A DNA stretch of 64,000 nucleotides from Gorillibacterium sp. sgz5001074. GTDB taxonomy: Bacteria; Bacillota; Bacilli; Paenibacillales; NBRC-103111. Shown here piece after piece: positions 12,521 to 64,000 of this stretch. The DNA lies in assembly GCF_051594765.1 (NCBI RefSeq), contig NZ_JBPPGJ010000003.1:264226-328225 (forward strand). The letters are read 5' to 3'. Each line of letters opens with the position of its first letter. Position 1 is the stretch's first letter. The notes under the pieces are model-generated. The model ran no database searches. It saw only the letters and a program-made list of their open reading frames with translations, and was not told the origin of the DNA. Position numbers and translations under genes: made by a program.

Positions 12521-13501
<981 letters not shown>

Positions 13502-30429: not shown

Positions 30430-30439
30430 AATAAACTCC

Positions 30440-30640
30440 TCCTTAGGGGTTGGATTGCACAAAAAAAAGAGATTGGATGTCTCCAATCTCAAGTCATAAG
30501 AATAACGAATAATAGTTGCCGCCCAGACGGAATACGACTGTACGACAAATACCATTCCATACTCTTCTGTCCTTTTGCCTGAGATAGTGAACCCTTCGGC
30601 GCCGTGGAAGTCCCACGGTCTCTCCAGAAGCTGCTCCTGC
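30440..30640 (-). ncRNA. glycine riboswitch (single aptamer) with intrinsic terminator/attenuator
   Basis: The minus-strand leader contains CUGGAGAG..GCGCCGAAGGG..CUCAGGCAAAAGGACAG, the signature of a glycine aptamer. A GAGAUUGGAG/CUCCAAUCUC hairpin plus U8 sits just before the RBS. Confidence 0.55.
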
Positions 30641-40007: not shown

Positions 40008-40041
40008 CCCTTTTTATTAACGTTACTTGTGGTAAATGATT

Positions 40042-46651: not shown

Positions 46652-46817
46652 AGGGTTACCTTTCTTGGCAGCTAAAGTGATGACGATTATGGAGTGTATT
46701 GTAGAACATGAATGGCGAGTTTACCGTTTCTCAGCGTAACATCTTTATAGCGAAATTGAAAGGGATTCGATCGGATGCCTTTTGCAGAAACTTGTCTCTA
46801 TGCAATAGAAGGCTTAC

Positions 46818-47708: not shown

Positions 47709-47836
47709 GTATCCCCCACTTGACAACTTTAAACCCATAGTACAAAATTATGAACATAGAGTCAATTGACCCCTTTTTCAAAATATTGAACCATAGGTCA
47801 CGATGGGGCAAACTCGATTTCTAAATTGGAGTGTGA

Positions 47837-48421
47837 TTGATCTTGGAAGAACTTTTGTTTCCATTTCCTAAGACGGCACTAATCGTCATCGACTTGCAAA
47901 AGTGGCTTGGATCCCAGTATGCCCCATATTCGTCGGAGCAAGTCGTCACCCGCGCCGCCTCTATGGTTCAAGCATTCCGTGAGGCAGGCGCATTCGTTGG
48001 ACTAGTTCGTGTATCCACGAAAGACTTCCAAGATATGCCTCGTCCGCTGCTGGATCAGCCCCCCCCAACCTTGAATCTGGTGCCTGGGTGGGATGAAATT
48101 GTACCCGAGATCGGAGTCACGGACACCGATCATGTCATTACCAAGCGCCAATGGGGAGCCTTTTACGGAACGGACTTGGATCTGCAGCTGCGCCGGCGGG
48201 GCATCACGACGATCGTGCTTTGCGGCATTGCTTCTGGTATCGGCGTAGATACCACTGCGCGTGAAGCCTTCGCCCATGGGTATCAGGTCATTTTTGCGAA
48301 AGATGCCATGACCGGCTTCAGCGAAGAGGAACATGAACACGTCATGAAGGTCATCTTCCCGCGTATTGGCAGAATCCGCTCGACCGAGGACATTCTTGCT
48401 TGCGCCGCGCTTCAATCTTAA
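47837..48421 (+). CDS. isochorismatase-family cysteine hydrolase
   Basis: Matches the family throughout, including the catalytic Cys in [12 protein letters not shown]. Confidence 0.75.
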
Positions 48422-48523
48422 ACGGCGAATACAAATTTTCAGGGCACCTTTAAAAGGTGCCCTGAATCACATATACTAAAATTAAAGCGCTTTATTGACA
48501 GGACTGCGTAAAGGAGGATTTTT

Positions 48524-50548
48524 GTGGAATATCATGTATCCATACAAGGGAATGATCAGGGGCAAGGAACCGCTGATCAGCCCTTTCGTACAATATCACG
48601 CGCTGCGGCTCTTGCCATGGCTGGTGATACGGTTATGGTTCATGCTGGAGTATACAGGGAATGGGTCAACCCGGCGAATGGGGGAACCGCGGAGCATAGA
48701 ATCGTATATCGATCTGCGGGAGACGGGGAAGTCGTCATTACAGGAGCGGAACGGATTGCCGACTGGAAGTCTGAAGGAAACAACGTTTGGAGCACAGAAG
48801 TATCCAATTCCATCTTTTCCGTTCGCAATCCCTTTGAAGTGGAGCTCAGTGGAGACTGGGTATTTGGCGGGCCCTTCCCGGTTCATCTCGGTGATGTCTA
48901 TTTGGATAACAAATCTCTGTATGAATGCGAGAGTGTCGAAAAGGTTCAGAAGCCCGAAGTTTGGCCCGAAGCCAAATATCCCGAGGACTCTCTGCTAAAA
49001 TGGTATGCCGAAGTTGGTGCCGCAACGACCAAAATCTGGGCCAATTTTGGTGGTAAAGATCCCCGTAAAGAAAATGTGGAAATTAATGTCCGCCCTTATT
49101 GCTTTTGGCCTGAGAAGCCGGGACTTAATTATATCACTGTAAGCGGCTTCACTCTTCGTCAAGCTTCTCCTCAGTGGGCACCGCCTACGGACTACCAGGA
49201 AGGATTGATCGGACCTCACTGGAGCAAGGGTTGGATTATTGAAAACAATGTGATTAGTGAATCCAGATGCGTTGGGATCAGCCTGGGTACCGAAATAGGT
49301 ACAGGTCACACCAAGTCCTCGGGCAAGCATATGAAAGGCGGTACTCAACGGGAGCAGGAGGTTATTTTACGAGCAATACGCTCCGGCTGGCATAAGGATA
49401 CCATCGGCAGTCACATCGTTCGAGGCAATGTGATTCATGACTGCGAACAGGCAGGGATTGTGGGTCATATGGGAGGGGCCTTCAGCCGCATTTATCAGAA
49501 CCGCATATATAATATTCACCACAAACGCTTGAGACACGGTGCTGAAGTAGCAGGAATCAAACTTCATGCTTCCCTGGATACTCAAATTAGCGAAAATAGA
49601 ATCTATAATTGTTATCGTGCTGTTTGGCTTGATTGGCAGGCGCAGGGCACCCGCATCAGCCGCAATGTATTTTTTGACAACCTTTCAGAAGACTTCTTCG
49701 TTGAGGTTTGCCATGGTCCGTATATGGTGGATCATAATTTGTTCCTCTCTCCGATGAACTTCAGAAATATGGCGCAGGGTGGAGCTTTTGCTCATAATTT
49801 GTTTGCCGGTAGATTTGTCGTTCGTTCGGAGATTACCCGTACTACGCCGTATCACTTCCCTCACGAGACGGCAATGGCCGGATACTCCAATATCACCGGA
49901 GGCGATGACCGGTACTACAACAATATCTTTTTGGGGGATCATGATGCTCATAAGGAACCTGTTCCCATAACCTTTTTTGAGCATCTTCCACTTAAACCAA
50001 GGGATGAAATTGGTGAGGACGGAAAGACCGTCATGGATGGGGTTCCGGACAATTCCATTTGCTATCTGCATGCTGTGGGACTGGGAGGCTACAACAAACA
50101 CCCTGATGCAAAAGATAAGAAATGGTGGGAATACACCCCTCAGGAGCTTGCTGAGCTTGGCGAGGCCGCAAAGGATTTCTTTATTGGAAATGCCGTTCTT
50201 CCGGTGGCTATGGGCGGAAACCTATATCTTAACCATGCGGTTCCAAGCAGTCATGAGCCCCATGCGAAGAGTTATGCGCAGAAGGGCATAGAAGTGGATA
50301 TTGATCCTGCACAAGGCAGGGTGCACATTCAGGTCCATGAGCCCGAACTGCTTCGGGGAGCCTCTGCCATGCTGGTTACCACCGATCTGCTTGGCAAGAC
50401 CTATCACGCCGAGATGAAATATGAGGAGCCGGACAGCAGTCCATATCGTTTTGACTCCGACTTTTTCGAAAAAAAGAGACCTGATGCAGATGTCACACCC
50501 GGTCCGTTTGAATGGGCCGAAAAGGGAACCATTGATTTCGATTTTTAG
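48524..50548 (+). CDS. right-handed parallel beta-helix repeat protein (pectate-lyase-superfamily fold), cytoplasmic
   Basis: GTG start after AAAGGAGG. Repeated NxIxxN/asparagine-ladder segments (ISENRIYNCY..ISRNVFFDN). No signal peptide. Confidence 0.7.
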   Translation: MEYHVSIQGNDQGQGTADQPFRTISRAAALAMAGDTVMVHAGVYREWVNPANGGTAEHRIVYRSAGDGEVVITGAERIADWKSEGNNVWSTEVSNSIFSVRNPFEVELSGDWVFGGPFPVHLGDVYLDNKSLYECESVEKVQKPEVWPEAKYPEDSLLKWYAEVGAATTKIWANFGGKDPRKENVEINVRPYCFWPEKPGLNYITVSGFTLRQASPQWAPPTDYQEGLIGPHWSKGWIIENNVISESRCVGISLGTEIGTGHTKSSGKHMKGGTQREQEVILRAIRSGWHKDTIGSHIVRGNVIHDCEQAGIVGHMGGAFSRIYQNRIYNIHHKRLRHGAEVAGIKLHASLDTQISENRIYNCYRAVWLDWQAQGTRISRNVFFDNLSEDFFVEVCHGPYMVDHNLFLSPMNFRNMAQGGAFAHNLFAGRFVVRSEITRTTPYHFPHETAMAGYSNITGGDDRYYNNIFLGDHDAHKEPVPITFFEHLPLKPRDEIGEDGKTVMDGVPDNSICYLHAVGLGGYNKHPDAKDKKWWEYTPQELAELGEAAKDFFIGNAVLPVAMGGNLYLNHAVPSSHEPHAKSYAQKGIEVDIDPAQGRVHIQVHEPELLRGASAMLVTTDLLGKTYHAEMKYEEPDSSPYRFDSDFFEKKRPDADVTPGPFEWAEKGTIDFDF

Positions 50549-50558
50549 TTTATTGTTG

Positions 50559-50595
50559 AGGATCCAGTCCTTTAAGGTGATTGGATCTTTTTTCG
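50559..50595 (+). terminator. rho-independent terminator
   Basis: GATCCAG..TTGGATC hairpin followed by TTTTTTCG, immediately after the stop at 50548. Confidence 0.55.
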
Positions 50596-50939
50596 TGTGT
50601 ACTGTTAGCGAAGTTTAGAAATGCTTGTCGAATGTTTTGCGCTGTACGAGTCCGGAATGGTCGAGGAGGCAGGCGAGGCCGATGTTCGCGCTCAATTTGA
50701 CGCCAACTTATTGTTCCTCCAAATGGGCGTTTATTTTGATGAACTCAGTATAAACATAGAGGCATCATGGCCCATAAATAGTTTTCTTCCAGTAAAAAAG
50801 ATCTTGGATTTTATGCGTCAATAGGTTGAATAAGAGCACTTGGGGCATGAAATATTTGACAAATGGGTGTCATCATATATAATTTTCTCAGCCAAATAAA
50901 TAGCATTGCATTTTAATCGAGAGAAATGAGGATAGTGAA

Positions 50940-51311
50940 ATGATGATCGTTCGTGACCTTTTAACGGCACTTGTTGCCATCGAGCATGTATATATCTTGA
51001 TTTTGGAAATGTTCATGTGGACAACTCCGAGAGCGAGGAAGGCTTTCGGAACCGAAATGAAATTCGCGGAAGCGACTAAGGCGCTTGCCGCTAACCAGGG
51101 TCTGTATAACGGCTTCTTGGCGGCGGGGCTGTTCTGGGGGCTCATTCATCCCGATGCCGCAATGGGGTACCAGCTGCAATTGTTCTTCCTAGGCTGCGTC
51201 CTCGTAGCCGCCGTCTACGGAGGCGTGACGGCGAAACGGTCGATTCTGCTCGTCCAAGGGCTGCCGGCATTAACTGCAATGGTCGCCGTGCTCGTATCGC
51301 GCTTTCTTTAA
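50940..51311 (+). CDS. DUF1304-family membrane protein
   Basis: 123 aa, 4 TM. Followed by a terminator at 51334-51356. Confidence 0.6.
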   Translation: MMIVRDLLTALVAIEHVYILILEMFMWTTPRARKAFGTEMKFAEATKALAANQGLYNGFLAAGLFWGLIHPDAAMGYQLQLFFLGCVLVAAVYGGVTAKRSILLVQGLPALTAMVAVLVSRFL

Positions 51312-51514
51312 CATCAAGCTTCTCAAGGAAAGAGGGCCGTACGGATGGCCGTTTTTACATACAAAGGACCGTTTTAGCATGGGGCGCAACTTTTCCAGCC
51401 ATATACCTTCTAAAGGGGAGTTATCCGATTCTCACTTTTATTTGGTATACACGAAATCCCCATAAGAGCAATGCCGATAAACGATTTCATGAAGTATCCG
51501 ATTATGAATTTATT

Positions 51515-51943
51515 GTGTTGAAGGAACGTTTTGGAGACCTCGTTCTTCCCATGGCGCTCGACTTAACGGATGCTGAGCAGGTACGCCAGGTCGTTCAGCA
51601 GGCTCATGCCCATTTCGGCAAGCTGGACGTTGTCCTCAACAATGCCGAACCCGGTGCTTATGTGACCGAGTTTGGCGCTTCAGGTAAGCGAGTACCGGAA
51701 ATGGACGTCTATACCGCTGTACGGAAGCAGGTATTCACACGTCTATCAAACGAAAAATGCGGCAACGCTCAAGCGACTGCAGAAGCCGTTCTCAAGATCG
51801 TGGACGCAGCGGAACCCCCACTACGATTTGCGCTCGGCTCGGAAATCTTGCCTATGGCACGCGGCACCTATGCTGACCGTCTCGCCACCTGGGAAGCCTG
51901 GGAGTCTGTCTCGAATGCAGCGCAAGGCAGTCCTATGCAATAA
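51515..51943 (+). pseudogene. SDR-family oxidoreductase fragment (N-terminal Rossmann segment missing)
   Basis: Starts in mid-domain (..LPMALDLTDAEQVRQVVQQAHAHFGKLDVVLNNA..) with no TGxxxGIG upstream. Confidence 0.55.
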
Positions 51944-52011
51944 GCCATTGCAATTGGACTGGAGCAGATAACCAGCAAGGAACCTCTTCGACTTTTTCGA
52001 AGAGGTTCCTT

Positions 52012-52830
52012 TCAAAACCTTCTCAACCATTCCAGCATTCGATCTACAACTTCCTTATATCGTTGTCCGACAAGCAGGCCGGTGTGGGTGGTGTGCCTAA
52101 GTCCAGCATATTCCGCATGGAGCTGTTCCGCTGTCAACCTGCCTCGACGGTCATCATCATCGTCATTAACAGCTTTGACAACCAAGCTTGGGCAAGTGAC
52201 CAAGCTGCCATTTATGGAGATTCCCTCTCCATCCTCAAATGCCAAAAACGCATTGAATGCCTTCGCCGACTCCATGGCTAGATACTTTTTTTGAAATGCG
52301 ATGTCTTCCGCCGATTCGTCTAAGCTTGTGTGTTCTTCTCTTACTGGGGCGGGAATGATAGGCCCCGATGTGAACAGGACAATATTTTCGTACGGTACTG
52401 CTTCATGCACTTCCTTGCTTATGCTGGAATCAATCACAACCAGACCTGCCAGGGAGACGGTTTCGGCCAGCTTCTGACACAGGATTCCGCCCATGCTGAA
52501 TCCGATCAGGATCGGCGGAACGCCGCATTCAACGATTACCTCCCGAATGTCCTCCAAGTAATCCTCGAAAGAAATCGTTGTCATATCCAACATCCTGCTT
52601 CTGTAGTGACTTCTCATGTTCATGACATAGCATTTCCATCCTTCATTCACAAAGTGGGGGATGTATTTGCTCCACATCCAACTTCCTGTGTAGGCACCGT
52701 GTACAAACAACAGCGGCGTTCTAGCCGCTGCACTCGAGAAGTTATCGTCACCATATACTTCTAAGAATAAATCGTGTTCTCCAACGTACTTCTCTGTATG
52801 AGGGGGCAACCATTTCGTGTAATCCTTCAT
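52012..52830 (-). CDS. alpha/beta hydrolase
   Basis: GFSMGG nucleophile elbow. Confidence 0.75.
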   Translation of the reverse strand: MKDYTKWLPPHTEKYVGEHDLFLEVYGDDNFSSAAARTPLLFVHGAYTGSWMWSKYIPHFVNEGWKCYVMNMRSHYRSRMLDMTTISFEDYLEDIREVIVECGVPPILIGFSMGGILCQKLAETVSLAGLVVIDSSISKEVHEAVPYENIVLFTSGPIIPAPVREEHTSLDESAEDIAFQKKYLAMESAKAFNAFLAFEDGEGISINGSLVTCPSLVVKAVNDDDDDRRGRLTAEQLHAEYAGLRHTTHTGLLVGQRYKEVVDRMLEWLRRF

Positions 52831-52887
52831 CTTTCATTCCTCCTGTAGGCATTATAGTTTGACATCAAACCTTCTAACCAAAAAAAA

Positions 52888-53361
52888 TTAAAAGTTGCGA
52901 TAGATTTTCAATAAAATTCTCAGTAGTTCTTCTTTCTCTTGGTCTGTGATTCCTGAGTAAAACGCGTTCAACATGTCGTTCGATATGGATTCAAATACAG
53001 GTCTCAATTCCAGTCCCTTCTGCGTTAAGGAAACGAAGACAACTCTTGAATCATCCGTGTGCCTTTCCTTGGTTACATACCCGAGCCGGACTAATTTGTC
53101 GACAAGCGCCGTAACCGTGGATTTATCCTTGCCGATCTTCCTGGCGATCTCCGCCATGGTCAGCCTGGTCTTCCCCAATAGTGCATAGATGATATCCCCA
53201 TGCGAGGTTGCAATACCATCCATGCTATGCTTCGCCATCTCGGCAATTATAAACCTGTTGGCCTTCTCTCTGATCTTAGCAATAAGTGAAACAGCGTCTC
53301 TGATCTCCATATTCGTATTATAGTTTTGCATCAAACTATTGTCAATGAATGGATGTAGCAA
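52888..53361 (-). CDS. MarR family transcriptional regulator
   Basis: Winged HTH (LTMAEIARKIGKDKSTVTALVDKLVRLGYV). The real start may be an internal Met. Confidence 0.75.
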   Translation of the reverse strand: MLHPFIDNSLMQNYNTNMEIRDAVSLIAKIREKANRFIIAEMAKHSMDGIATSHGDIIYALLGKTRLTMAEIARKIGKDKSTVTALVDKLVRLGYVTKERHTDDSRVVFVSLTQKGLELRPVFESISNDMLNAFYSGITDQEKEELLRILLKIYRNF

Positions 53362-53385
53362 TCAATAGCACACTCTGTCTTCTAA

Positions 53386-53471
53386 GGAACTTGCCGTTAC
53401 TTGTGATACGGATCGCCGCGCTGTCTATAACGGCAAGTTTTAGAGCCATCCTTCCGGGACGGCTCTTTTTT
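53386..53471. repeat. rlmH 3-prime-end copy 3 (GATCCGTATCACAAGTAA, minus strand) within a 12-bp inverted repeat (AACTTGCCGTTA..TAACGGCAAGTT), followed by a terminator-like hairpin
   Basis: Direct repeat of the C-terminal codons and stop of rlmH at 63080-63103. A region of about 45 nt is about 85% identical to the copy at 60751-60800. Confidence 0.7.
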
Positions 53472-53492
53472 GTCTCTCTTATCTAAACTCTG

Positions 53493-54038
53493 TCAGTGCT
53501 TACAGAGTTTTTCATACACCTCATAAACTGCGAGCACCTGCTCCACAAAGCCTTTCTCGGCACTTTCAATCCATTTGATAAAAGCCATGTAAAAAATTTC
53601 AACCGCAAATCGTGCGGCAAGCTCTGACAGCTCGCGATCAAATTTGACAGACAATGCGTTTGTGACAGACCCCATTAGCGCCTGGCTTTTCAGCAGCTCA
53701 CGCTCCTGCAAATCAGGGTTGCTTTGAATAATTTGATTCCGCGCCAGCACCCTCTCCCGCTCGCCATCAAAAAAACTAAAAACCGAGGCAAAGCCATCAA
53801 CGGCAAGCTTCAGCGGATTTTGCTCGACGTCGATATGGTCCGTGATAAAAGCCGCGACTCGATGCCCCATCTCATTTCTCGTGTCAAAAAGCACGTCAGA
53901 TTTGTCCTTGAATTGCCGGAAAAAGGTTCTCTCCGTCACACCTACAAGGCTTGCAATCTCTTGCACCGTCGTATTTTCATAGCCTTTTTCCATAAATAAT
54001 TTCGTGGCCGCCGCCTGCAGTTTCTCTTTACTATTCAT
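53493..54038 (-). CDS. TetR/AcrR family transcriptional regulator
   Basis: TetR HTH (AATKLFMEKGYENTTVQEIASLVGVTERTFFRQF). Confidence 0.8.
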   Translation of the reverse strand: MNSKEKLQAAATKLFMEKGYENTTVQEIASLVGVTERTFFRQFKDKSDVLFDTRNEMGHRVAAFITDHIDVEQNPLKLAVDGFASVFSFFDGERERVLARNQIIQSNPDLQERELLKSQALMGSVTNALSVKFDRELSELAARFAVEIFYMAFIKWIESAEKGFVEQVLAVYEVYEKLCKH

Positions 54039-54186
54039 TTTACCATTCCTATTTTTATAATTTTTTACATTTTTACGAAAAGGTCAGTAACTGACATTTT
54101 ATCTTGACAACAGTATCCAGCAAGCGCATAATGATCTCAAATGTCAGTCACTGACATAACTTTATCAAAAAGAAGGAGAGAACACA

Positions 54187-55074
54187 ATGAAAATCACCGT
54201 TCTCGGCTCACTCGGCAATATCAATCGTAACTACCTTCCACGCCTCATCGCAGACGGTCACGATGTCACCGTCATCACAAGCTCCAAAGATCGGGTCTCC
54301 GACATCGAAGCTCTCGGCGCCAAGGCTGCTGTCGGCTCAAATCGTGATGTCGACTTCCTCACCAAGGCTTTCACAGGCAGCGACGTCGTTTACCTCATGA
54401 TTTCTGGCATCCATTTTGCCACTGGCACGGATATGTGGCAGACCGCCATCGAGCTTTCTGAAAATTACAAGACCGCCGTTCTAAACTCAGGCGTGAAAAA
54501 CGTCATCAACCTCAGCTCAGTGGGCGCTGACAACCCCAACGCCGGCATCCTTTACAGCTATCATTTTGCAGAAGACGCGCTCAACTCGCTCGAAGGCGTG
54601 AACGTTGTTCATATCCGCCCTGTCGGCTTTTACAGTAATCTTTTTGCCGACATGCAAAGCCTTAAAGCCCAGCGAATCCTCTTCAGTCCCATTTCAGCCG
54701 ACATCCCGCAAGGGTGGGTCAGCCCCGTTGATATCGCGGACGTCGCTTACGCTCTGATTTCTCACACCCCAGCGGGAAAAAGCACGAAATTCGTAGTAAG
54801 CGATTGGGCCACATGCAACGACTGGCTAAATGCTCTTGCTGAAAATGATATCGAAGCCAAGTTCCAAAAAATCCCCGTCGAAGCTCTCGCTGAAAATATG
54901 AAGAAAATCGGCTTCCATGAAAACACCGCCAACGGCTTCGCCCAATTGTACCGCGCGGGTGAAAACGCCGACGAATTCTACGCCAGCCTCCGTGCCACCG
55001 ACTACTACCTCGGCAAAGTCAAGATTGGAGACTTTGCAAAGGTTTTTGCGGATGTATATAAAAAATCAGTTTAA
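54187..55074 (+). CDS. NmrA-like NAD(P)-binding protein
   Basis: MKITVLGSLGNINRNYLPRLIADGHDVTVI Rossmann motif. Confidence 0.7.
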   Translation: MKITVLGSLGNINRNYLPRLIADGHDVTVITSSKDRVSDIEALGAKAAVGSNRDVDFLTKAFTGSDVVYLMISGIHFATGTDMWQTAIELSENYKTAVLNSGVKNVINLSSVGADNPNAGILYSYHFAEDALNSLEGVNVVHIRPVGFYSNLFADMQSLKAQRILFSPISADIPQGWVSPVDIADVAYALISHTPAGKSTKFVVSDWATCNDWLNALAENDIEAKFQKIPVEALAENMKKIGFHENTANGFAQLYRAGENADEFYASLRATDYYLGKVKIGDFAKVFADVYKKSV

Positions 55075-55154
55075 ACCATTTTGGATTACAAACCGTTCTT
55101 ATTACCTCCACAAAAACTAACAGAGCACCCGAATAGGTGCCCTTCCACGATTCA

Positions 55155-55730
55155 TTAGCTATGCGATTCGATTAATATCCTAGCAGCCTGTTCGATGTCA
55201 GCCGGCGGGGCATCGGGGCCGACCAACCGCGCGATCATACAGAATCCTTCCATCAAGACGAAGAGCTGTCGCGACAGTCCTTCGGGGGATCGCAAATTCG
55301 CTTGCCTGCATATGTCTTCCAAACGACGGATGACAGATTGCTTGTGTCGGCTTACTTCCTGATTCACCATATGGTCGGGGAACGGATACTCCACGGCGAC
55401 CGCTTGATACAGACAGAAGCTCGATTGCGGCGACTTCGAATGTTGGCCTGCAATCGCTTTAAACAATGCAAGAATCTGCTCCCGCGATTCGGCCTTACCT
55501 ACCGTCTTATCAAACCATTCCCAATACATCTCGCTGGAACGTTCCAGAATGGCAACAATTAAATGATCCTTGGACGGAAAGTGTTTGTATAAGGTCATCT
55601 TCGTAACACCAGCTTCGGCAGCGATGCGGTCGACACCGATTGCATGGAAGCCGTTAGTGAAAAACAACTGACTCCCGGTCAACAGCAATTGCTCCCTAGT
55701 GGCTGATTTCCGGTCATTCATAACACTCAT
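55155..55730 (-). CDS. TetR/AcrR family transcriptional regulator
   Basis: Start MSVMNDRKSATREQLL with an AGAGGTGA RBS. The upstream track extension is non-coding. Confidence 0.75.
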   Translation of the reverse strand: MSVMNDRKSATREQLLLTGSQLFFTNGFHAIGVDRIAAEAGVTKMTLYKHFPSKDHLIVAILERSSEMYWEWFDKTVGKAESREQILALFKAIAGQHSKSPQSSFCLYQAVAVEYPFPDHMVNQEVSRHKQSVIRRLEDICRQANLRSPEGLSRQLFVLMEGFCMIARLVGPDAPPADIEQAARILIESHS

Positions 55731-55747
55731 TTTAAAATCACCTCTAT

Positions 55748-55819
55748 ACTTGACAGTATACAGATCGGTATGTATACTGTCAATTAAAACCAGCGGTATA
55801 CAGACTTGTATGTATACTC
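55748..55819. promoter_or_regulatory. divergent TetR-controlled promoter: perfect 12-bp inverted repeat TTGACAGTATAC-(10)-GTATACTGTCAA overlapping a consensus sigma-A promoter, plus a second GTATAC-containing half-palindrome
   Basis: TTGACA at 55750-55755, a 17-nt spacer, then TATACT at 55773-55778. The inverted-repeat arms are 55750-55761 and 55772-55783. Confidence 0.6.
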
Positions 55820-55836
55820 TAAAAGGAGGAGAAGAA

Positions 55837-56484
55837 ATGAAGATCGGATTCATCGGTTCGGGCAACGTCGGGCAATCGTTGGGGCGCGTATTGGTTCAAC
55901 AGGGGTATGATGTGAAGCTTGGCGCGAGGGACTTGAGTAAGTTGAGGATCTGGCAAGAATCGTTCGGGGCTAATGAAAGGGCGAGCGTTGGCACCTACCG
56001 GGAAGCAGCCGAACATGGCGAGATTATCTTCAACGTTACGCCTGGCGCCGTATCGCTCGAAGCCTTGCAGTCGGTAGGTCGGGTAGCGCTTGCCGGCAAA
56101 ATTCTTATCGATGTTGCGCTTCCACTCGTATTCGCGAATGGCGAGCTGGGATTGTCAGTCCCCCACAACGACTCGCTCGGAGAACAGATCCAACGCGCCT
56201 TCCCAGATACGAAAGTCGTCAAAACGCTTAATACCGTAACGTCTGCCCTTATGATCCATCCGTACCAGCTTGCAGAGGGCCAGCACGATATGTTTATCGG
56301 GGGTAATGATGTAGACGCAAAAAAACAGGTCTCAGAGTACCTGCGCAAATGGTTCGGTTGGAAGAACATTCTGGATCTAGGCGACATCTCATCTGCACGC
56401 GCAACAGAGGGCCTTCTCCTGCTTACCTCCAGAATATATGGCGCCCTCGGTCATGCGAACTTTAATCTGAAAATCATTCACTAA
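55837..56484 (+). CDS. NADP-binding oxidoreductase (F420-dependent NADP reductase / ProC-like Rossmann family)
   Basis: MKIGFIGSGNVGQSLG start after an AAAAGGAGGAG RBS. Confidence 0.65.
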   Translation: MKIGFIGSGNVGQSLGRVLVQQGYDVKLGARDLSKLRIWQESFGANERASVGTYREAAEHGEIIFNVTPGAVSLEALQSVGRVALAGKILIDVALPLVFANGELGLSVPHNDSLGEQIQRAFPDTKVVKTLNTVTSALMIHPYQLAEGQHDMFIGGNDVDAKKQVSEYLRKWFGWKNILDLGDISSARATEGLLLLTSRIYGALGHANFNLKIIH

Positions 56485-56491
56485 AACAGAC

Positions 56492-57952
56492 ATGACTAAC
56501 AGGAAGGACTCACCCTCCTCATCGGTCCGCCATCTCGCCGTGCCGATGGCCGCGATCATTGTCGGGATGTTTATCGTCTATTTGGATCAGACGGTTTTGA
56601 ATGTGATTTTGCCAAATATAATTACATCACTTCATAGCACATACCCTGCAGCGCAATGGACGATTACCGGATACTCGCTCGCTATGGCGTCCCTCATACC
56701 CATTGCGGGCTGGCTCTCCGACCGGTTCGGCGCCAAGCCGGTCCTGCTCATGGCGATTGCTTGGTTTGGGGCGGCTTCTGCTCTTTGCGCGCTGTCTTCC
56801 ACGATGGAACAACTGATCTTGTTCCGCTCCGTTCAGGGCATTAGCGGAGGTCTGGTGACGCCAGTAGGGCTTGCGATGATCTATCGTCTGAGCCCCTCAG
56901 GGCAGACCGGCAAGGTCATGGCGATGATCAGCATTCCGGTTCTGCTAGCCCCCGCTTTCGGTCCAATTCTAGCCGGTTACCTTGCCGACCATTTATCCTG
57001 GCACTGGGTGTTCCTGATCAACGTTCCGCTCTGTCTCATCGGCCTCCTTCACGGTATTCGCTATCTTCCGCGGATTACCAGCGGGCCCACAGCAAGATTG
57101 GACCCTTATGGATTATTCCTCGCCCCCGTTGCAGTTGTTGGGCTTTGTTACGGGCTTAGCGCAGGCACCAGTAGTTGGCATTCCACACAGACAATCGGCA
57201 GTTTTTTGACGGGATTCATCAGTCTCATTCTATTGATCGTCGCTGAATTACGGCAACCGGAACCGTTGTTGGAACTTCGCGTCTACCGTTCCCGTGGTTT
57301 TGCCAAAGGCAGCTTTATACTGGCAGCGGGGCAAATCGCTGTTTTCGGAAGCCTTTATTTGTTGCCGCAATGGCTGCAGAACGTAAGAGGTAGCGGCGCA
57401 TTCGAGTCCGGACTGCTCATGCTACCGTATGCGGTATCGTCGGGTATTGTCTTACAATGGTCGGGCAAATGGTTCGACAGATTCGGAGTTCGGAGATTAG
57501 CGATAGCCGGAATGTGCGGCCTGGGGATTGACGGATTTTTGCTGGCTCGCCTCGAACCGAATAGCAGTACGCTTTGGATCGTTCTGCCGATCGTCTTGCT
57601 TGGCGCGAGCTCGGGTCTATGCATGATGCCACTGAGTACACATCTCATGCTAATGGCCCCACGGGAGCTGGTCAGCCGAGTATCCTCGCTAGCCGGCGCC
57701 TCCCAACAGGTCATTGTGTCTTTAACCATCGCCGGGCTGACAACCTTATTGACTGGATATATGGGGTCGCCTGTGAGTAGACCTCCCCCTCTCGTTCAAG
57801 ACTGGCTGCCAGCGTTTCGTATAACTTTTGCAACAACTTCAATTACTGCCCTTCTCGGCGCAACGATCGTAATATTCATAAAAAACGATTATAGTTTACG
57901 AAATAGGAATGGTGATTTGATTTCTAAAGAAAAAAAGAGAAGCCCGGATTAA
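56492..57952 (+). CDS. MFS transporter, DHA2 (EmrB/QacA-like, 14 TM) drug:H+ antiporter family
   Basis: 486 aa with motif A-like regions (LDQTVLNVILPNI.., GWLSDRFGAKPVLL). Confidence 0.75.
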   Translation: MTNRKDSPSSSVRHLAVPMAAIIVGMFIVYLDQTVLNVILPNIITSLHSTYPAAQWTITGYSLAMASLIPIAGWLSDRFGAKPVLLMAIAWFGAASALCALSSTMEQLILFRSVQGISGGLVTPVGLAMIYRLSPSGQTGKVMAMISIPVLLAPAFGPILAGYLADHLSWHWVFLINVPLCLIGLLHGIRYLPRITSGPTARLDPYGLFLAPVAVVGLCYGLSAGTSSWHSTQTIGSFLTGFISLILLIVAELRQPEPLLELRVYRSRGFAKGSFILAAGQIAVFGSLYLLPQWLQNVRGSGAFESGLLMLPYAVSSGIVLQWSGKWFDRFGVRRLAIAGMCGLGIDGFLLARLEPNSSTLWIVLPIVLLGASSGLCMMPLSTHLMLMAPRELVSRVSSLAGASQQVIVSLTIAGLTTLLTGYMGSPVSRPPPLVQDWLPAFRITFATTSITALLGATIVIFIKNDYSLRNRNGDLISKEKKRSPD

Positions 57953-58213
57953 TCAAGGACCGGCCGTTCTTCGCACAGAAGTCCGCCCTAACCACATGGG
58001 ATGGGTGGCCGACATTGATCGCTTGCGGGTTATGTGAATACAAAAAGAGAGGACCTTCCCGGTACGGTTCTCCGTATCACTCTAACGGCGAAAAATAAGC
58101 CATTGGATTTCGGTTCTCCTAGCTATCGGTAATGAAAGTTTTAAGGCCATCCTTAATCTCCCGCATCTATGAAGAAAAGACAGGGCGGTCGCCCCTGTCT
58201 TTCTTTACGTTAA

Positions 58214-59002
58214 CTAAATTTTCCCATTATATATTTTAACTGTAATTGGAGCGACAATCAGAACAAGGAGTATGCCGATAAAGATGGTCATTGATGCGCT
58301 TGAAGTGAACTCTCCATGATTGGCTAAATCTTTAAAAGCCGTGACCAAATAAGTAATAGGATTATGTTCAGCTACGCTCCGCAAAAAATGGGGCAACGTA
58401 TCAATAGGCACGAAGGCGTTGGATAGGAACGACATCATCATGGTGACCATTGTCGAAATACTAGAGATCGTTGCTGCGGATTTGGATACCAGACCAATCA
58501 ATGCAAACACCCAACTGATGGCGCATGCGCCGAATATGGCCAAAAGCGAAGCGACGATCAACCACCCAAACCCGGCTTCCGGACGCCATCCAAGAATGTA
58601 GCCCGTACCGATCGAGAAAAAAGCCGCCGCGACATATCGTAAAATATCTGATGTCACTAAACCAGCCAGTGGAGCAATCCGGACAATGGGTAATGATTTA
58701 AACCGATCAAAAACGCCAGTATCCAAATCCTCCCGTAACTGCGTGCCCGTTGCCGCTGACGACATGACCAGTGTTTGAATGAGAATTCCCGGCACGATGA
58801 TTGGCAAGTATCCTTGTACACCTCCAGCAATCGCACCTCCGAATAGATATGAAAAGACGATCATGAAGAAAATAGGGATTACGGTTACATCGATCAATTT
58901 ATCGGGATTATGTTTGATTTTCAGGATATTTCTTTTTGCCATTACAACAATATCATACAGAGCGCTCTTTAAGTTGTTTTGTTTGCTTATCACAGATTCC
59001 AT
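58214..59002 (-). CDS. ABC-2 type transporter permease (DrrB-like)
   Basis: 262 aa, 6 TM. Confidence 0.7.
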   Translation of the reverse strand: MESVISKQNNLKSALYDIVVMAKRNILKIKHNPDKLIDVTVIPIFFMIVFSYLFGGAIAGGVQGYLPIIVPGILIQTLVMSSAATGTQLREDLDTGVFDRFKSLPIVRIAPLAGLVTSDILRYVAAAFFSIGTGYILGWRPEAGFGWLIVASLLAIFGACAISWVFALIGLVSKSAATISSISTMVTMMMSFLSNAFVPIDTLPHFLRSVAEHNPITYLVTAFKDLANHGEFTSSASMTIFIGILLVLIVAPITVKIYNGKI

Positions 59003-59017
59003 GTTTATCTCCCCTAA

Positions 59018-59947
59018 TTATTTAGTTAGTTCCAAAAACACCTCATCAAGCGTTGGTTTTCTAACTGAAAACTCTTTGATTTCTATATCATGCTGAGTTA
59101 AATCTACTAGTAATCTGGTCATCACTTTCGTGTCTGCCAGCTTAACGGTCAATTTGGTTCCTTCGGGTGAAATCATGGCCTCCTGAGCGATTTCCGCCTT
59201 GATTAGTCCTTTGGCTCTTTCGGCATCCCTCATATGCTCCAGAGTAATTTCAAAATGGGTATCGCTTAACAAAGACTTCAATTCATTCGGCGTTCCCTGA
59301 GAAATGATTCTTCCATGATTAATTATCGCTAGTCGATCTGCTAGTTGATCCGCTTCCTCCAAATACTGAGTTGTCAGCAAGATCGTTGCCCCGTCGCTTG
59401 CCAAGTTGCGGATCACTTCCCACATCTCTCCTCGTGTGCGTGGATCTAAGCCCGTTGTCGGTTCATCAAGAAAAATGAGTGGGGGCTTCACGATTAAACT
59501 CACCGATAAATCCAATCGTCTACGCATCCCGCCCGAAAATTCACGAATCGGTCGATCCTTTGCCTCGGTTAATGAAAACTGATTGAGAAGTTCAAGAGCC
59601 CTCGCTTTGGATTGACTCGCTGATAAACCATTCAATTGCCCAAAGAGCTTCAAGTTTTCCATCGCGGTCAATTCCTCATCAACGGTTGCATATTGGCCCG
59701 TCAAGCCAATCAAGCTTCGAACCTTTCGAGCGTCTTTGGTGACGTCTTTGCCAAAAATCATGGCTTTGCCTTTTGACACTTTAGTAATCGTTGCAAGCAT
59801 TCGCAAGAAAGTTGTCTTTCCTGCACCATTCGGACCCAGAATACCGAAAATCTCTCCTTTCTTAATATCCAAAGAAATACCATCGACTGCTCGCTTGTTA
59901 GGAAATTCTTTAACGAGCTCTTTAGTTGAAACGGCTAGCTCTGTCAT
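59018..59947 (-). CDS. ABC transporter ATP-binding protein (DrrA-like)
   Basis: Walker A (GPNGAGKTT) and signature (FSGGMRRRL). Start at MTELAVS. Confidence 0.8.
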   Translation of the reverse strand: MTELAVSTKELVKEFPNKRAVDGISLDIKKGEIFGILGPNGAGKTTFLRMLATITKVSKGKAMIFGKDVTKDARKVRSLIGLTGQYATVDEELTAMENLKLFGQLNGLSASQSKARALELLNQFSLTEAKDRPIREFSGGMRRRLDLSVSLIVKPPLIFLDEPTTGLDPRTRGEMWEVIRNLASDGATILLTTQYLEEADQLADRLAIINHGRIISQGTPNELKSLLSDTHFEITLEHMRDAERAKGLIKAEIAQEAMISPEGTKLTVKLADTKVMTRLLVDLTQHDIEIKEFSVRKPTLDEVFLELTK

Positions 59948-59971
59948 TCTGTTTTCTCCTTTGCGCATTTA

Positions 59972-60012
59972 ATAAGGATACCTTACTAATAAAATAAGGT
60001 ACCCTTACTAAA
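59972..60012. promoter_or_regulatory. two direct copies of a palindromic box (TAAGGATACCTTACTA / TAAGGTACCCTTACTA); putative MarR operator
   Basis: Each copy contains TAAGG..CCTTA inverted half-sites. Located 25 nt upstream of the ABC ATPase start and 80 nt upstream of marR. Confidence 0.5.
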
Positions 60013-60091
60013 ATGTCAACCACATAATTTGAATTACTTCGGTGACCTGATAAAATAGAGAGGTACGGAGAACAAATAAGGGGAAATTATT

Positions 60092-60553
60092 GTGGATGAA
60101 AAACAATTAAACGTCGATATAACGACTAACTTCATGAAATATAATGATTTACTTACGGCGTTCTTAAAAGAAAACATACTTAAAGGCAGCAGCGTGTTTA
60201 CCTCTCTAAATCGAGGGCAAGGGAAAATATTGAGCATCCTTCATCAGACACCAAGTATTTCCCAAAAGGAATTAGTCAATCAATTGGATATGCGCCCGCA
60301 ATCTGCTTCTGAAATGATTAAAAAGCTAGAAAAAAAGGGATTCATCGAGCGGTATAAATCTGAAGAGGATCAACGCGTGATGATGATTACGCTAACTAAA
60401 GCCGGCAAAGTCGTTTTAAATCAAGCCGGAGACTTTCAGCCTGTATTTTTAAATGTTCTAACGATGGATGAAAAACAACAATTTAATCGAATACTCGAAA
60501 AACTTGTAGCCGAAATTGAACCCGAAGTCGCCAAATCTCGAAACAAGCAATAG
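60092..60553 (+). CDS. MarR family transcriptional regulator (low GC)
   Basis: Winged HTH (SISQKELVNQLDMRPQSASEMIKKLEKKGFI). Confidence 0.8.
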   Translation: MDEKQLNVDITTNFMKYNDLLTAFLKENILKGSSVFTSLNRGQGKILSILHQTPSISQKELVNQLDMRPQSASEMIKKLEKKGFIERYKSEEDQRVMMITLTKAGKVVLNQAGDFQPVFLNVLTMDEKQQFNRILEKLVAEIEPEVAKSRNKQ

Positions 60554-60750
60554 GGGCGTTATATCTAGATGCCGAAGGGGCGGGTTACCAGCTTCACGCC
60601 TGAATTTCCGGAGAAGGTCGGTTGCAAAAATCAAAGGGAGCCGTCCCAAATTCGATGATTTGGGAACGGCTCCCTTTACGGTTTGCCTCACTTTTCGCTT
60701 GCTATTCATTTTTTTGGGACATTCCAACGTATTGCAGCGAGCAAATTCGC

Positions 60751-60800
60751 CCTACTTATGATACGGTTCTCCGCGTTATCTGTAACGGCAAGTTTTAGGG
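60751..60800. repeat. rlmH 3-prime-end copy 2 (GAACCGTATCATAAGTAG identical to the native gene end; encodes RGEPYHK-stop) plus flanking element-end homology (..GTAACGGCAAGTTTTAGGGCC)
   Basis: 20 of 20 nt identical to 63081-63100. The flank is about 85% identical to 53415-53447. Confidence 0.7.
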
Positions 60801-60961
60801 CCAGTTTTGCAGGATGGAGAATTTCCGGTGTAAATCAATTAGTTTTTTTCCGAAGCTCTTCTCCCAAACAGCTCGATGCTTCTTCATCAACTCCATAAGA
60901 TATAAATCATGGACGTTTACTTCTGTAACCCTCCCTTGGAGTTAAATACTATCGCAGATAA

Positions 60962-61012
60962 AAAAAAGAATGCCGTGCATTTCCTGCACAACATTACGGC
61001 ATTCTCCCCAAT
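60962..61012 (-). terminator. rho-independent terminator of the helicase gene
   Basis: 10-bp stem (AGAATGCCGT/ACGGCATTCT) followed by T8 on the minus strand. Confidence 0.65.
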
Positions 61013-61075
61013 CGGTATGTTTACAGCTCGGCCAACGGCGAAGGTTTACTGCGCCAATGGTATGCAGCTAGCATT

Positions 61076-62524
61076 CTATCTCTTGTTCGCCGGCTGTACC
61101 TTCAGTAATTTACCCTTAACTGTGGTCTCCCGCATGGTGTTAAGCACCAGCCGGCCTTTGCCGTTCAGAATATCGACGTACGAAGCATTGTCCTCTATGG
61201 TGATGATGCCAATGTCATCTGCCGTTACACCTTCGATCTTCGCAATCGTTCCCACAAAGTCAACGGCCCTGATCTTCTTCTTCTTGCCCCCGTTAAAATA
61301 CAGCTTCATAATCTCATTACCCATGACGCTGTTCTTATCGGTCTTGGGAGTGGGCCGAGCCTTCATCTTCTTCTCGAAAGCATACTGGGCCTGCTCCGCC
61401 TCTTCCTTCGAAGGAGCACTCTTCCTTGGAATTTCATGCCCTATATAGCCCTCAATACTGATAACAAACTTCTCCTCATTCGGAGTGGCGAAGGAGATTG
61501 CCTTCCCCGTCTTCCCCGCGCGGCCGGTTCGGCCGGTTCGATGCACATAGCTCTCATTCTCTAACGGAAGATCATAATTGAAGACATGAGTGATATTATC
61601 GATGTCAATGCCCCTCGCGGCTACATCCGTTGCGATCAGATAACGGAACTCGCCCCTCTTGAAGGCATTCATCACCTCGTTCCGGTTGTCCTGCTCCATC
61701 CCGCCGTGGATGCCGTCACAGCTGTACCCATGCTTGTTCAACTCCTTGAACACCACCTCTACCCGGACTTGCGTACGGCAGAAGATGATGCAGCTGTCCG
61801 GGTTCTCAACCGTCGTTACATCCCGGAGCAGCTTGAGCTTATGCTCGTCCTTCACGGTATACAAGGCATGTTCAATTTGACTCTTCGTTCTTCCCGCGGT
61901 CTCGATCTCAATATCCATTGGCTGCTTCATATACCGGTGGCATAAGCTTTCTACATCCTTGGGCAAGGTTGCAGAGAACAGCAGGGTCATCCGGTGCTTG
62001 GGCAGCTCCCGAATAATCTTCTCCACCTGCTCAATAAAGCCCATGCTGAGCATCTCATCCGCTTCATCAATAACCAGGATCTTCACTTGCTCCAAGTCGA
62101 TCGTTTGCTTCTCGATGTGGTCCATCACCCGTCCCGGCGTACCGACGACAACATGATTTTTATACGTCAACTGATCTTTCTGCCTCTCGAAAGGCTGCTT
62201 CCCATAAATCGCGATTGCCTTGATCCGCTTGTACTTCCCAATATTCATGATATCCTGCTTGACTTGGTCCGCCAGCTCCCGGGTCGGGGTTAAGATCAAG
62301 GCCTGAGGCCGGTTCTCTTCCCAGTCCACCATTTCACAGACCGGAATCCCGTAAGCAGCCGTCTTGCCGCTACCCGTATGGGATTTGACCGCCATATCCC
62401 TATTCTCCAGCGCGTGAGGGATGACTTTACTTTGAACCTCTGTCGGTTGCTCGTAGCCCAAGCTCTCCAACGCCCGGATTATGGGGTCACTTAATTTATA
62501 GCTCGTAAAGCCTCGTTCACTCAT
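61076..62524 (-). CDS. DEAD-box ATP-dependent RNA helicase with C-terminal DbpA-type RNA-binding domain
   Basis: Q motif, Walker A ([12 protein letters not shown]), DEAD (VIDEADEM), SAT, and [20 protein letters not shown]. Confidence 0.85.
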
Positions 62525-62654
62525 ATAAGAACTCCTTCGTAATATCCTAGGTTATGTCGTCCACCCCTGCACTGCGTTTGTTTGCAATCATTTAGAATCA
62601 GGAAGATGACTCCTCATGATACGATAATTCCGATCGATAATCTAGCTTACTCTA

Positions 62655-63108
62655 ATGATCATCATCCCAGCTAATGAACACGCAGCAGATCAAGAGCATC
62701 ACGGTTGGTTGGACAGCTCTCACGGATTTTTCCGCCGTTTGGTCATCGTTCCGTTTCGTCGGGTGTTCAAGGGAGTGGAGGCCACAAAATGCTGCTGGAG
62801 AAGCTTTTGGAAGAACTGCCGGGCATCTTCAACTTTGCGATTGAAGGGCTTCGCCGCTTGAGAGAGCGAGACTACATCTTCTCCGAGTCCAAGGCAATCG
62901 AACAAGCGATCAACAGCTACAAGTCAGAGCAAAACCCGGTCATTTCATTCGTTGCCGACTTCGTCGAGAAGGAAATGAAAGCGACAGGGTTTGGACAAAC
63001 GAACTGTTCGACCACTTTCAAACTTGGTACAGACAGCAAGGCGAAACGGACTGCTGCGCGTTTTCACAAAAACATGCCCCTACTTATGATACGGTTCCCC
63101 CCGGTTGA
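62655..63108 (+). pseudogene. remnant of a phage/plasmid P4-family primase-helicase (C-terminal D5/primase-C region), N-terminally truncated, at least 2 frameshifts
   Basis: Frame a reads ..FRRLVIVPFRRVF. Frame b reads LLEKLLEELPGIFNFAIEGLRRLRERDYIFSESKAIEQAINSYKSEQNPVISFVADFVE. Frame c reads ELFDHFQTWYRQQGE. Together these match the conserved C-terminal pattern of P4-type primases. It ends exactly at the rlmH att core. Confidence 0.55.
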
Positions 63109-63559
63109 TCTTAAACGCCCGGTACACCTGCTCCACCAGGATCAGCCGCATGAGCTGATGCGGGAAGGTCATGCGCCCGAAGCAGAGCTTGGCGTCGGCG
63201 CGCTTGAGCACGGACGGGGCCAGGCCATTGGAGCCGCCGATGACGAAGGCCACGCTGGAGCGGCCGTACGTGCCGAGGCGGTCCAGCTGGGACGCCAGCT
63301 CCTCGGACGTCCACATGGCCCCGTCCAGCGCCAGCGCGATGACGTAAGCGTCCGGCTTCAGCTGGGCCAGGATCCGCTCGCCCTCCTTGGCCTTCACCTG
63401 CTCCTCCTCCGCCGCGCTCATGGTCTCGGGAGCCTTCTCATCCGGGACTTCGTTCAGCTGCACCTTCGCATAAGGCCCCAGCCGCTTCACATATTCGGCA
63501 ATGCCGTCCAACAGGTACTTCTCCTTCAGCTTACCGACCGCTACGATCTGGATATGCAT
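63080..63559 (-). CDS. rlmH: 23S rRNA (pseudouridine1915-N3)-methyltransferase RlmH
   Basis: The 159-aa SPOUT-family protein [82 protein letters not shown]. The track ORF start at 63691 is an upstream junk extension. Confidence 0.85.
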
Positions 63560-63626
63560 CGATTGCCGCTCCCTTGTCTTCTCCTTATCGTCTATCCTAT
63601 CATCATCGGCCCCCTCCGGCGGAGGA

Positions 63627-64000
63627 TTAGGCCGACAGCTTCTTGCCTTCAACCGGCGTCCTGCTGCCCCGGAACAAGGAGCGAACGGCACTCCACACCG
63701 CCTGATACAGCACAGACAGATATAGCGACGCCAACAGGCTGAAGAAGAAGGCCAGCCCGGTGAACAGGATGTAATTCTTCGGGCCGCCCATGGGCTTCAT
63801 GGAGTACTTGTACAGCGTCAGGAATGCCGGATGCAGCAGGTAGACGCCGAAGGAATGGCGGCTCACCTTTTGGACCCGGGCATAGAAGGGGCTTGTCCGC
63901 GCGGAGAGCGCCTGTCCCCACCGGAGCAGGAACAGACTCAGGAAGAACACATTCCCCAGCGTAGCCACCTCGAACCACGTATTCTCGAAGAAGACATGGC
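63627..64000 (-). CDS. membrane acyltransferase-family protein, C-terminal part (start beyond right edge)
   Basis: The reading frame stays open to position 64000. Hydrophobic C-terminal helices ([23 protein letters not shown]). The family call is tentative. Confidence 0.4.

Follow-up and report, generated by a model that had tools for sequence, protein, structure and literature searches.

A probable accretion array of recombinase-less SCC-like islands at the 3' end of rlmH in Gorillibacterium sp. sgz5001074

In Gorillibacterium sp. sgz5001074, the 23S rRNA methyltransferase gene rlmH lies near one end of the 64,000-nt stretch analyzed here (contig NZ_JBPPGJ010000003.1, positions 264,226 to 328,225; hereafter the window), and copies of its own 3' end recur in the DNA downstream. 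rlmH (63080-63559, minus strand) is intact, codes for 159 aa, and matches the SPOUT_MTase profile PF02590 over its full length (positions 1-154/154; E = 1.9e-59). Its terminal 18-mer, GAACCGTATCATAAGTAG, is located at 63097..63080 on the minus strand. An exact second copy was found at 60752-60769, where the identity spans ∼21 nt, and a third copy, GATCCGTATCACAAGTAA, with 2 changes relative to the 18-mer, at 53397-53414. All three copies share one strand of the window, as an earlier note on this DNA had claimed. Searching the 64 kb with the degenerate pattern CCNTAYCAYAARTRR (≤1 mismatch) yielded 3 sites only, compared to 0.37 expected. The earlier note had also described similar inner flanks for copies 2 and 3, and had placed copy 3 in the loop of a 12-bp inverted repeat. 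Both observations were reproduced: the flanks are 76% identical across 78 nt, and copy 3 lies between the perfect arms AACTTGCCGTTA (53388-53399) and TAACGGCAAGTT (53428-53439). The midpoint of this inverted repeat falls exactly on the dinucleotide TC/GA at 53413-53414. The GC content decreased from 0.63 (500-nt window over rlmH) to 0.36-0.56 in the islands.

The copies were analyzed together with the rlmH loci of related species. One genome per species was scanned with the window RlmH, resulting in 80 Paenibacillaceae loci with 10-kb flanks (best match, 86%; individual loci are cited by L numbers). A protein search for RlmH, in which the nearest relative was 91% identical (L081), added L081-L083 as further loci. 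nhmmer profile models built from the attachment (att) sites of relatives were then run over the window. Each distal copy turned out to be part of a ∼56-bp site, in which two inverted 27-nt half-sites are arranged about a central GA located 6 bp before TATCAYAA. Sites of the relatives could be assigned to class A (aaaacttgccgttacagacagcgcgga-GA-ACCGTATCAYAAGTRR-cggcaagtttt), class B (attttcgccgatagccccgttaagct-GA-...-cggcgaaaaatt), or class C (aatttcgctctatagatgatacggt-GA-...-ggcgaaattt), and copies 2 and 3 of the window belong to class A. At the junction of islands 1 and 2a, att site 2 (60741-60796, minus strand; E = 1.7e-13) comprises a class-A P arm, aaaacttgccgttacagataacgcgga (60770-60796), GA (60768-60769), and the right half-site ACCGTATCATAAGTAG ggcgaatttgc (60741-60767); it shows 2/29 mismatches to the class-A motif and a dyad score of 14/27. 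Att site 3 (53386-53441, minus strand; E = 3.8e-10) has a class-A P arm (53415-53441), GA (53413-53414), and a class-A right half-site, TCCGTATCACAAGTAA cggcaagtt (53386-53412), with 2 mismatches to the motif and a dyad score of 15/27. Since both of its arms are of class A, it represents a P-GA-P' junction, which explains the 12-bp inverted repeat. In the rlmH-proximal site (63069-63124, minus strand; E = 6.6e-7), the left half-site (63098-63124) lies in the rlmH coding frame and is followed by GA (63096-63097). Its right half-site (63069-63095), ACCGTATCATAAGTAG gggcatgtttt, is island 1 sequence and encodes (E)PYHK-stop. The rlmH reading frame is thus kept, its last 16 nt belonging to the proximal att site. 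Because the left half-site lies in the rlmH frame, this site is without dyad symmetry (5/27).

According to two reports, SCC (staphylococcal cassette chromosome) att sites consist of two degenerate inverted half-sites about a central GA, at which strand exchange takes place. The GA is located 6 bp upstream of the core TATCATAA, and three half-sites are alike while the fourth lies in the rlmH frame (bioRxiv 10.64898/2026.03.31.715619; PMC10581047). The order GA-ACCG-TATCATAA at the window sites corresponds to this published geometry, in agreement with the earlier note's assignment of SCC-type islands to the rlmH 3' end. The 18-nt direct repeat is the right half-site, obliged to re-encode the RlmH C terminus, and not the overlap region; crossover is predicted at the GA on the 5' edge of the repeat.

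Further, mostly truncated sites were detected on the minus strand. By nhmmer and sequence reading, two remnants were found stacked at 58061-58143. The first (58111-58143; E = 1.2) retains a degenerate class-A-like P arm (58117-58143), GA (58115-58116), and ACCG. The second (58061-58097; E = 1.9e-5) retains the P arm tatttttcgccgttagagtgatacgga (58071-58097), GA (58069-58070), and ACCGTACC, followed by unrelated sequence. A half-site at 46731-46757, consisting of the class-C P arm aatttcgctataaagatgttacgct and GA, differs from the class-C consensus at 4/27 positions (E = 0.003-0.004 with the left-arm model), and the leader of an ABC-F gene stands where its right half would be. With the full model, a possible decayed distal site, gtacagacagcgcgat GA ACCTTACCCTAAAT, was found at 5100-5134 (E = 0.013), and a weaker candidate right half-site at 40017-40034 (E = 0.53), likewise on the rlmH strand. 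The earlier note had divided the region into two segments within 53.39-63.08 kb. The copies do delimit islands, but there are more than two segments, as the interval between copies 2 and 3 is split at 58061-58097 and 58111-58143, and the half-site at 46731-46757 shows that the array is longer than claimed.

Island 1, adjacent to rlmH, contains a remnant of a helicase gene of the D5_N/DUF5906/P4-primase-C-terminal (COG3378) type (62768-63000, plus strand; TIGR01613 positions 212-276, E = 1.8e-8). The remnant adjoins rlmH, is cut at both ends, and comprises ∼230 nt (about 75-100 codons). It exhibited 53% amino acid identity to residues 399-505 of the 664-aa D5_N/DUF5906 helicase of L003 and 74% nucleotide identity to L003 positions 13299-13644. 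The cargo of the island is a DbpA-type DEAD-box RNA helicase gene (61076-62524, minus strand; 482 aa; DEAD, Helicase_C, and DbpA domains), homologues of which sit just 3' of rlmH in L043, L059, and L060. At the ends of the island, the outer arm of att site 2 pairs at 10/13 positions with the right arm of the proximal site, as computed by hand.

The cargo of the other islands was annotated with Pfam. Island 2a (cargo, 58214-60553) carries genes for a MarR regulator (60092-60553, plus strand), a DrrA-like ABC ATPase (59018-59968, minus strand), and an ABC-2 permease (58214-59002, minus strand). Island 2b (cargo, 53493-57952) carries an MFS efflux pump (56492-57952, plus strand), an F420/NADP oxidoreductase-like protein (within 55699-56484, plus strand), two TetR regulators (within 55155-55865 and at 53493-54038, both minus strand), and an NmrA-like protein (54187-55074, plus strand). 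The divergent promoter region that separates a TetR gene from the F420-oxidoreductase/MFS operon contains a pair of 28-nt direct repeats (GTATACAG...GTATGTATAC; 55756-55823) lying 40 nt apart; each includes palindromic GTATAC motifs, and they are probably TetR operators. Probable island 3 (46758-53385), limited by att site 3 and the half-site at 46731-46757, contains genes for MarR, alpha/beta hydrolase, truncated SDR, DUF1304, GH120-like, isochorismatase, and TetR proteins. Its isochorismatase gene is 93% identical in nucleotide sequence to L001 positions 19879-20473, which lie 3' of the last att site of L001.

Beyond this half-site follows a single-gene cassette with the ABC-F gene (44912-46651, minus strand; 579 aa, two ABC_tran domains). 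The encoded protein may be of the ribosome-protection type of antibiotic resistance, with a leader region preceding the gene. This gene showed 81-84% nucleotide identity to genes in the rlmH-downstream arrays of L014, L036, L005, L046, and L044; in these five arrays it forms a cassette of its own, which in L036 occupies the interval from the rlmH end to the att site that follows at 12774. In those Paenibacillus species, the ABC-F gene was always found within the rlmH-downstream array, and the rest of the sequence is far less alike. In addition, an island of L001 bounded by att sites matches the window segment at 41.1-42.5 kb with 90% identity, and the segment at 38.3-40.0 kb resembles the genes right after rlmH in L021. 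From the ABC-F cassette and the L001- and L021-like segments it follows that the accreted region extends to at least about the 45-kb position, and probably beyond. A megablast of 53386-63108 against plasmids gave one 716-nt match in a TetR region, to a 2.7-Mb Paenibacillus replicon, and no other match.

No recombinase gene was found in these islands. Pfam scans of ∼60 major window ORFs (open reading frames) detected no Resolvase, Recombinase, Phage_integrase, or transposase domain. A tblastn search of the window with 10 serine recombinases of related loci revealed no remnant, only antisense rlmH read-through. This is in line with the earlier note, which had reported no ccr or other recombinase gene and had proposed recombinase-less, pseudo-SCC elements. 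As SCC elements are defined by an internal ccr and the window contains none, its islands fit only the ccr-less (pseudo-SCC) category.

In the related loci, copies of the rlmH end were abundant. With the pattern GARCCNTAYCAYAARTRR (≤1 mismatch), the 80 loci and the window together gave 160 matches, all of them on the rlmH strand and none 5' of the gene, compared to 0.4 expected by chance from shuffled controls. The search for extra copies in related genomes that the earlier note had suggested thus yielded 1-4 of them (2-5 copies in total) within 10 kb in 52/80 loci, i.e., 65% of the sampled species. The median of 84 copy spacings was 3.07 kb. Overall, species carried 1-5 copies, and the cargo separating them was unrelated. 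The densest chain of the set was seen in L072, with five rlmH-end sites within 7.6 kb (10463-18070; spacings of 1.5-2.3 kb); L015 has five sites as well, two of which are 128 nt apart. In close species pairs, nucleotide homology of 85-97% runs through the wal operon and ends at the rlmH stop codon, after which the DNA differs or homology resumes behind different insertions. The same cassettes (93-98% nucleotide identity) were found at different array positions across species, e.g., in L009/L065/L074 and in L012/L069. L081, whose RlmH is 91% identical, has an array that includes a class-A site, and in L081-L083 the site is filled differently from the window. A cargo sample of 150 cassette ORFs from the relatives contained 151 Pfam families, and a Resolvase domain in only 2/150, indicating that recombinase-less cassettes with diverse cargo are the norm.

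The sites of the relatives share the anatomy seen in the window. Among 85 extra sites, dyad symmetry peaked only when centered on the GA of the Glu codon (13.2/27 versus 5-8 at other offsets). No such symmetry was seen in the rlmH-end sites of relatives (7.1), as their left arm is composed of rlmH codons. In a codon-blind search, 190/229 differences from the genome's own rlmH end fell at third-codon or stop-codon positions, and EPYHK-stop was kept by 59/82 copies. This coding-type constraint argues that the right half-site is kept able to serve as an rlmH end. P arms paired at 7.04/13 positions with the right arm found on the opposite end of their cassette, compared with 6.01/13 across their own junction and 5.97/13 with random arms. 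Cassettes that originated as circles carrying a palindromic site should show such pairing.

Recombinases were present at the same site in relatives. Large serine recombinases (Resolvase, Recombinase, and Zn_ribbon_recom domains) adjoin rlmH in L003, L007, L010, L053, L056, L062, L066, and L080; in L033 and L070, two such genes lie next to each other. For the six that were scored (L003, L007, both of L033, and both of L070), the best NCBIfam model was SCCmet_CcrB, with 281-447 bits over the full length, followed by CcrC. All six fall below the equivalog cutoff for CcrB of 900 bits, and by these scores the enzymes would be Ccr-like, not Ccr. As in the ccrA-ccrB order, the second gene of each pair resembles CcrB more closely, and the gene upstream of it has diverged further. 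Intact D5_N/DUF5906/primase_Cterm helicases are encoded beside the recombinases in L003 and L033, the latter with a Prim-Pol domain, an arrangement also seen in the ccr gene complex. L003 (Paenibacillus sp. YN15) carries an apparently intact 9-kb class-A element with a recombinase (565 aa), a D5/P4-type helicase, and a class-A P arm at 19437. Since the helicase remnant of the window matches the L003 helicase, island 1 would be what is left of a class-A element after loss of the recombinase and of most of the helicase gene next to it.

Seven of the recombinase loci differed in their site. In L007 (10388-12157), L010, L053, L056, L062, L066, and L080, rlmH ends with ...CATCGCTAA (EPYHR-stop) followed by aggtaaaat, a fourth att class. 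Here, a convergent serine recombinase ORF without a stop codon before the junction reads into rlmH antisense, so the C terminus of the enzyme would differ between the integrated and circular forms.

Taken together, we consider it very probable that the region is an accretion array of SCC-like islands that entered at the rlmH 3' end through GA-centered strand exchange by Ccr-like large serine recombinases and later decayed. Circular elements would carry an attachment site made of two inverted ∼27-nt half-sites about GA, and a Ccr-like recombinase would join it to the equivalent site at the rlmH end, where the GA is part of the Glu codon of ...G-E-P-Y-H-K-stop. The right half-site of the element would then become the new rlmH end, and must therefore encode PYHK-stop, while the displaced old end would remain at the distal junction. 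Repeated insertions, deletions, and exchanges would produce a chain of junctions in one orientation. Every island of the window would have lost its recombinase or never had one, and further movement would need a recombinase in trans. What was observed are the sites with their geometry and coding constraint, how common and how variable they are among relatives, the recombinases that relatives carry at this position, and the helicase remnant; the crossover at GA, a Ccr-like enzyme as its catalyst, and any current mobility are inferred. Several observations weigh against this interpretation. The 64-kb window is without a recombinase gene, and the recombinases of the relatives score well under the CcrB cutoff. 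The base right after GA in att site 3 (copy 3) is T, not A; only truncated sites occur at 58.1, 46.7, 40.0, and 5.1 kb, with weak statistical support for the last two. All comparisons are between species, the nearest RlmH being 91% identical. Moreover, end classes are mismatched in islands 2 and 3 (a class C-like right arm with a class-A P arm, and the reverse), suggesting deletions or exchanges between sites, or promiscuous recombination, and not simple insertions.

Some of these features would also be expected if the islands are inert scars, i.e., old site-specific insertions that have eroded and become fixed, immobile even with a recombinase. The origin would be the same and only the present state different, which makes this a subcase of accretion by site-specific insertion, and we regard it as a serious possibility falling somewhat short of probable. 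The lack of a recombinase in the window, the helicase remnant cut at both ends, the truncated sites at 58.07 and 46.73 kb, the base change beside GA in copy 3, and the mismatched arm classes of islands 2 and 3 all agree with it. However, sites 2 and 3 retain both half-sites and GA (E of 1e-13 and 4e-10 versus the family model), and the ends of island 1 still pair at 10/13 positions. In addition, cassettes of the relatives differ between close species, although they too are mostly recombinase-less (Resolvase in 2/150 ORFs).

Alternatively, homologous recombination after DNA uptake could have been the main driver, with the walRK...rlmH block and the rlmH-end copies as anchors and the repeats as passive elements. 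The highly conserved upstream synteny (walR-walK-yycH-yycI-walJ-htrA-yyzF-rlmH), the break of homology at the rlmH end, and the shuffled cassette order between species are in line with such a process, which has been documented for transfer of the Enterococcus cassette chromosome (ECC) in Enterococcus (PMC6222049). It would, however, not account for how the sites arose or why they show dyad symmetry about GA, nor for the pairing of cassette ends and the recombinase genes adjoining rlmH, and the common core of 18-20 nt is short for RecA-dependent exchange. We therefore consider it unlikely as the primary mechanism; homologous recombination probably contributes to the shuffling.

Targeting of the rlmH end by a different class of enzyme, such as a tyrosine integrase of a prophage or integrative and conjugative element (ICE), or a transposase, appears very improbable. 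Support for it was found neither in the window nor in the related loci: Phage_integrase and transposase domains were absent from the window ORFs scanned and from the 25 most frequent families of the 150 cassette ORFs, and the sole recombinases at the site in relatives are large serine recombinases. A nonpalindromic central dinucleotide between long inverted half-sites, as seen here, typifies serine integrases (PMC3783163). A prophage or ICE was also rejected as a candidate, given a cargo of regulators, efflux pumps, oxidoreductases, and an RNA helicase instead of phage structural or conjugation genes, and the lack of any match of the class-A att pattern in viral contigs.

It is scarcely credible that the repeats arose by chance or local duplication without any link to mobile DNA, or that they act as regulatory or terminator signals of rlmH: hairpins and T-runs are often located 5' of P arms and the copy 3 inverted repeat could fold, but the locus counts (3 and 160 observed versus 0.37 and 0.4 expected, with no copy upstream of rlmH or on the other strand), the species comparison (1-5 copies with unrelated cargo, 151 Pfam families in 150 ORFs), and the coding-type constraint effectively refute it.

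Other features of the window were noted. Opposite rlmH, the plus strand is open for more than 200 codons (62705-63742), as it is in several relatives, so that ORF finders list long spurious ORFs crossing the att site. Immediately 5' of rlmH, where L081 and L082 have yyzF/htrA, the window carries a membrane-protein ORF of which the 3' part is present (63627-63968, minus strand). The otherwise conserved wal-operon...rlmH synteny thus appears to have an extra gene in the window, which ends just upstream. At 30557-30637 (minus strand), a glycine riboswitch aptamer (RF00504; 51.9 bits) lies directly 5' of an amino-acid permease gene (29065-30555, minus strand). At 1152-3304 (minus strand), a WYL/HTH_11/WCX regulator is encoded beside an AlkZ-like DNA glycosylase; small pairs of a regulator (TetR, MerR, LysR, or AraC) and an enzyme abound in this part of the window. 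The pairing of WYL-type regulators with AlkZ-like glycosylases is often tied to self-protection against DNA-alkylating compounds.

Beyond the window, the survey suggests that rlmH-end arrays are the rule and not the exception in Paenibacillaceae, and that most cassettes are without a recombinase. Tentatively, and with confidence just below an even balance, the rlmH end in this family may be read as a general, integron-like gene-capture platform. Most species would hold chains of small, mostly recombinase-less cassettes (median, ∼3 kb), each terminating in an SCC-type half-site that retains the capacity to re-encode the RlmH C terminus. At least three att classes (A, B, and C) would presumably be served in trans by matching CcrB-like recombinases, and identical cassettes would move between species. 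If so, the accreted region here would comprise at least 18 kb, possibly ∼58 kb. The array in the window itself is a well-resolved case from beyond the staphylococci, found in a Paenibacillaceae genus of soil and gut, in which the logic of SCC insertion is conserved to the base (predicted GA crossover, TATCAYAA core, and a half-site re-encoding the RlmH end). Arrays of mostly recombinase-less cassettes as frequent as the survey suggests would bear on how resistance, efflux, and defense genes are pooled and exchanged in environmental Bacillota, and on possible reservoirs of SCC-type cargo. The natural att/recombinase sets of classes A, B, and C are candidate orthogonal serine-integrase tools. 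The array in the window does not open a new kind of system.

The earlier note had considered the array notable on the grounds that insertion at rlmH is essentially confined to Staphylococcaceae. This view cannot be maintained, as the ECC sits at rlmH (PMC6222049) and SCC-like islands at rlmH are described for Bacillus cereus and Geobacillus vulcani (PMC10581047). The Rice laboratory has reported such islands from several Bacillota, Paenibacillus pinistramenti among them (PMC10061031). For P. pinistramenti, that report describes a COG3378 helicase together with two large serine recombinases, as well as tandem composites in which the rlmH-end repeat occurs several times.

The closest parallel is to SCC elements without ccr (pseudo-SCC, "SCI," or no_ccr) and to composite SCC arrays; SCC elements are the carriers of methicillin resistance in staphylococci. 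Insertion takes place at the last rlmH codons with the frame restored, the att sites form a same-orientation chain with GA 6 bp before TATCAYAA, and three similar half-sites are combined with one inside rlmH. Pseudo-SCC islands likewise lack recombinases and carry efflux, regulator, and defense-type cargo, and the upstream neighborhood is the wal operon near oriC. In contrast to staphylococcal SCC, the host family is Paenibacillaceae, the outer half-site is cggcaagtttt, cggcgaaaaatt, or ggcgaaattt instead of tgatgcggttt, and RlmH ends with EPYHK instead of the EAYHK of staphylococcal SCC hosts. Moreover, the Paenibacillaceae cassettes are small (median spacing of ∼3 kb in relatives), and the recombinases of relatives are only CcrB-like (281-447 bits versus 900). 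The islands described in PMC10061031 include a case from the same bacterial family. They encode a COG3378-type helicase along with either one or two large serine recombinases, repeat the last ∼12 bp of rlmH, and also form tandem composites. They differ in that the window is without the recombinase(s), the PolA-SSB pair, and an intact helicase, retaining a helicase fragment only; the att half-site classes and family-wide prevalence given here were not found in the parts of that report that were read. The ECC shares the rlmH 3' end, ∼50-nt att repeats, highly variable cargo, and the occurrence of ccr-less remnants. It has an average of 42 ORFs, ccrAB_Ent, and experimentally shown transfer (PMC6222049), whereas the window islands span 2-7 kb and are known from sequence alone.

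Integron arrays offer a functional analogy only: they, too, are one-directional chains of small, mostly promoter-poor or single-operon cassettes on one fixed platform, with each cassette ending in an imperfect palindromic recombination site. The window, however, is without an IntI tyrosine integrase, attI, or attC; it has duplex sites of the serine-recombinase type, and its platform is the end of a housekeeping gene. An integron was accordingly rejected, as no Phage_integrase domain was found in the window and the sites are rlmH-end mimics with a GA center, not attC. Among the reports consulted, we know of no systematic description of such pervasive arrays of small rlmH-end cassettes. SCC-like islands outside staphylococci, tandem composites included, are already known, and the window is a ccr-less example of them; what may be modestly new is their prevalence (65% of the sampled species within 10 kb), the small size of the cassettes, and the discrete att classes.

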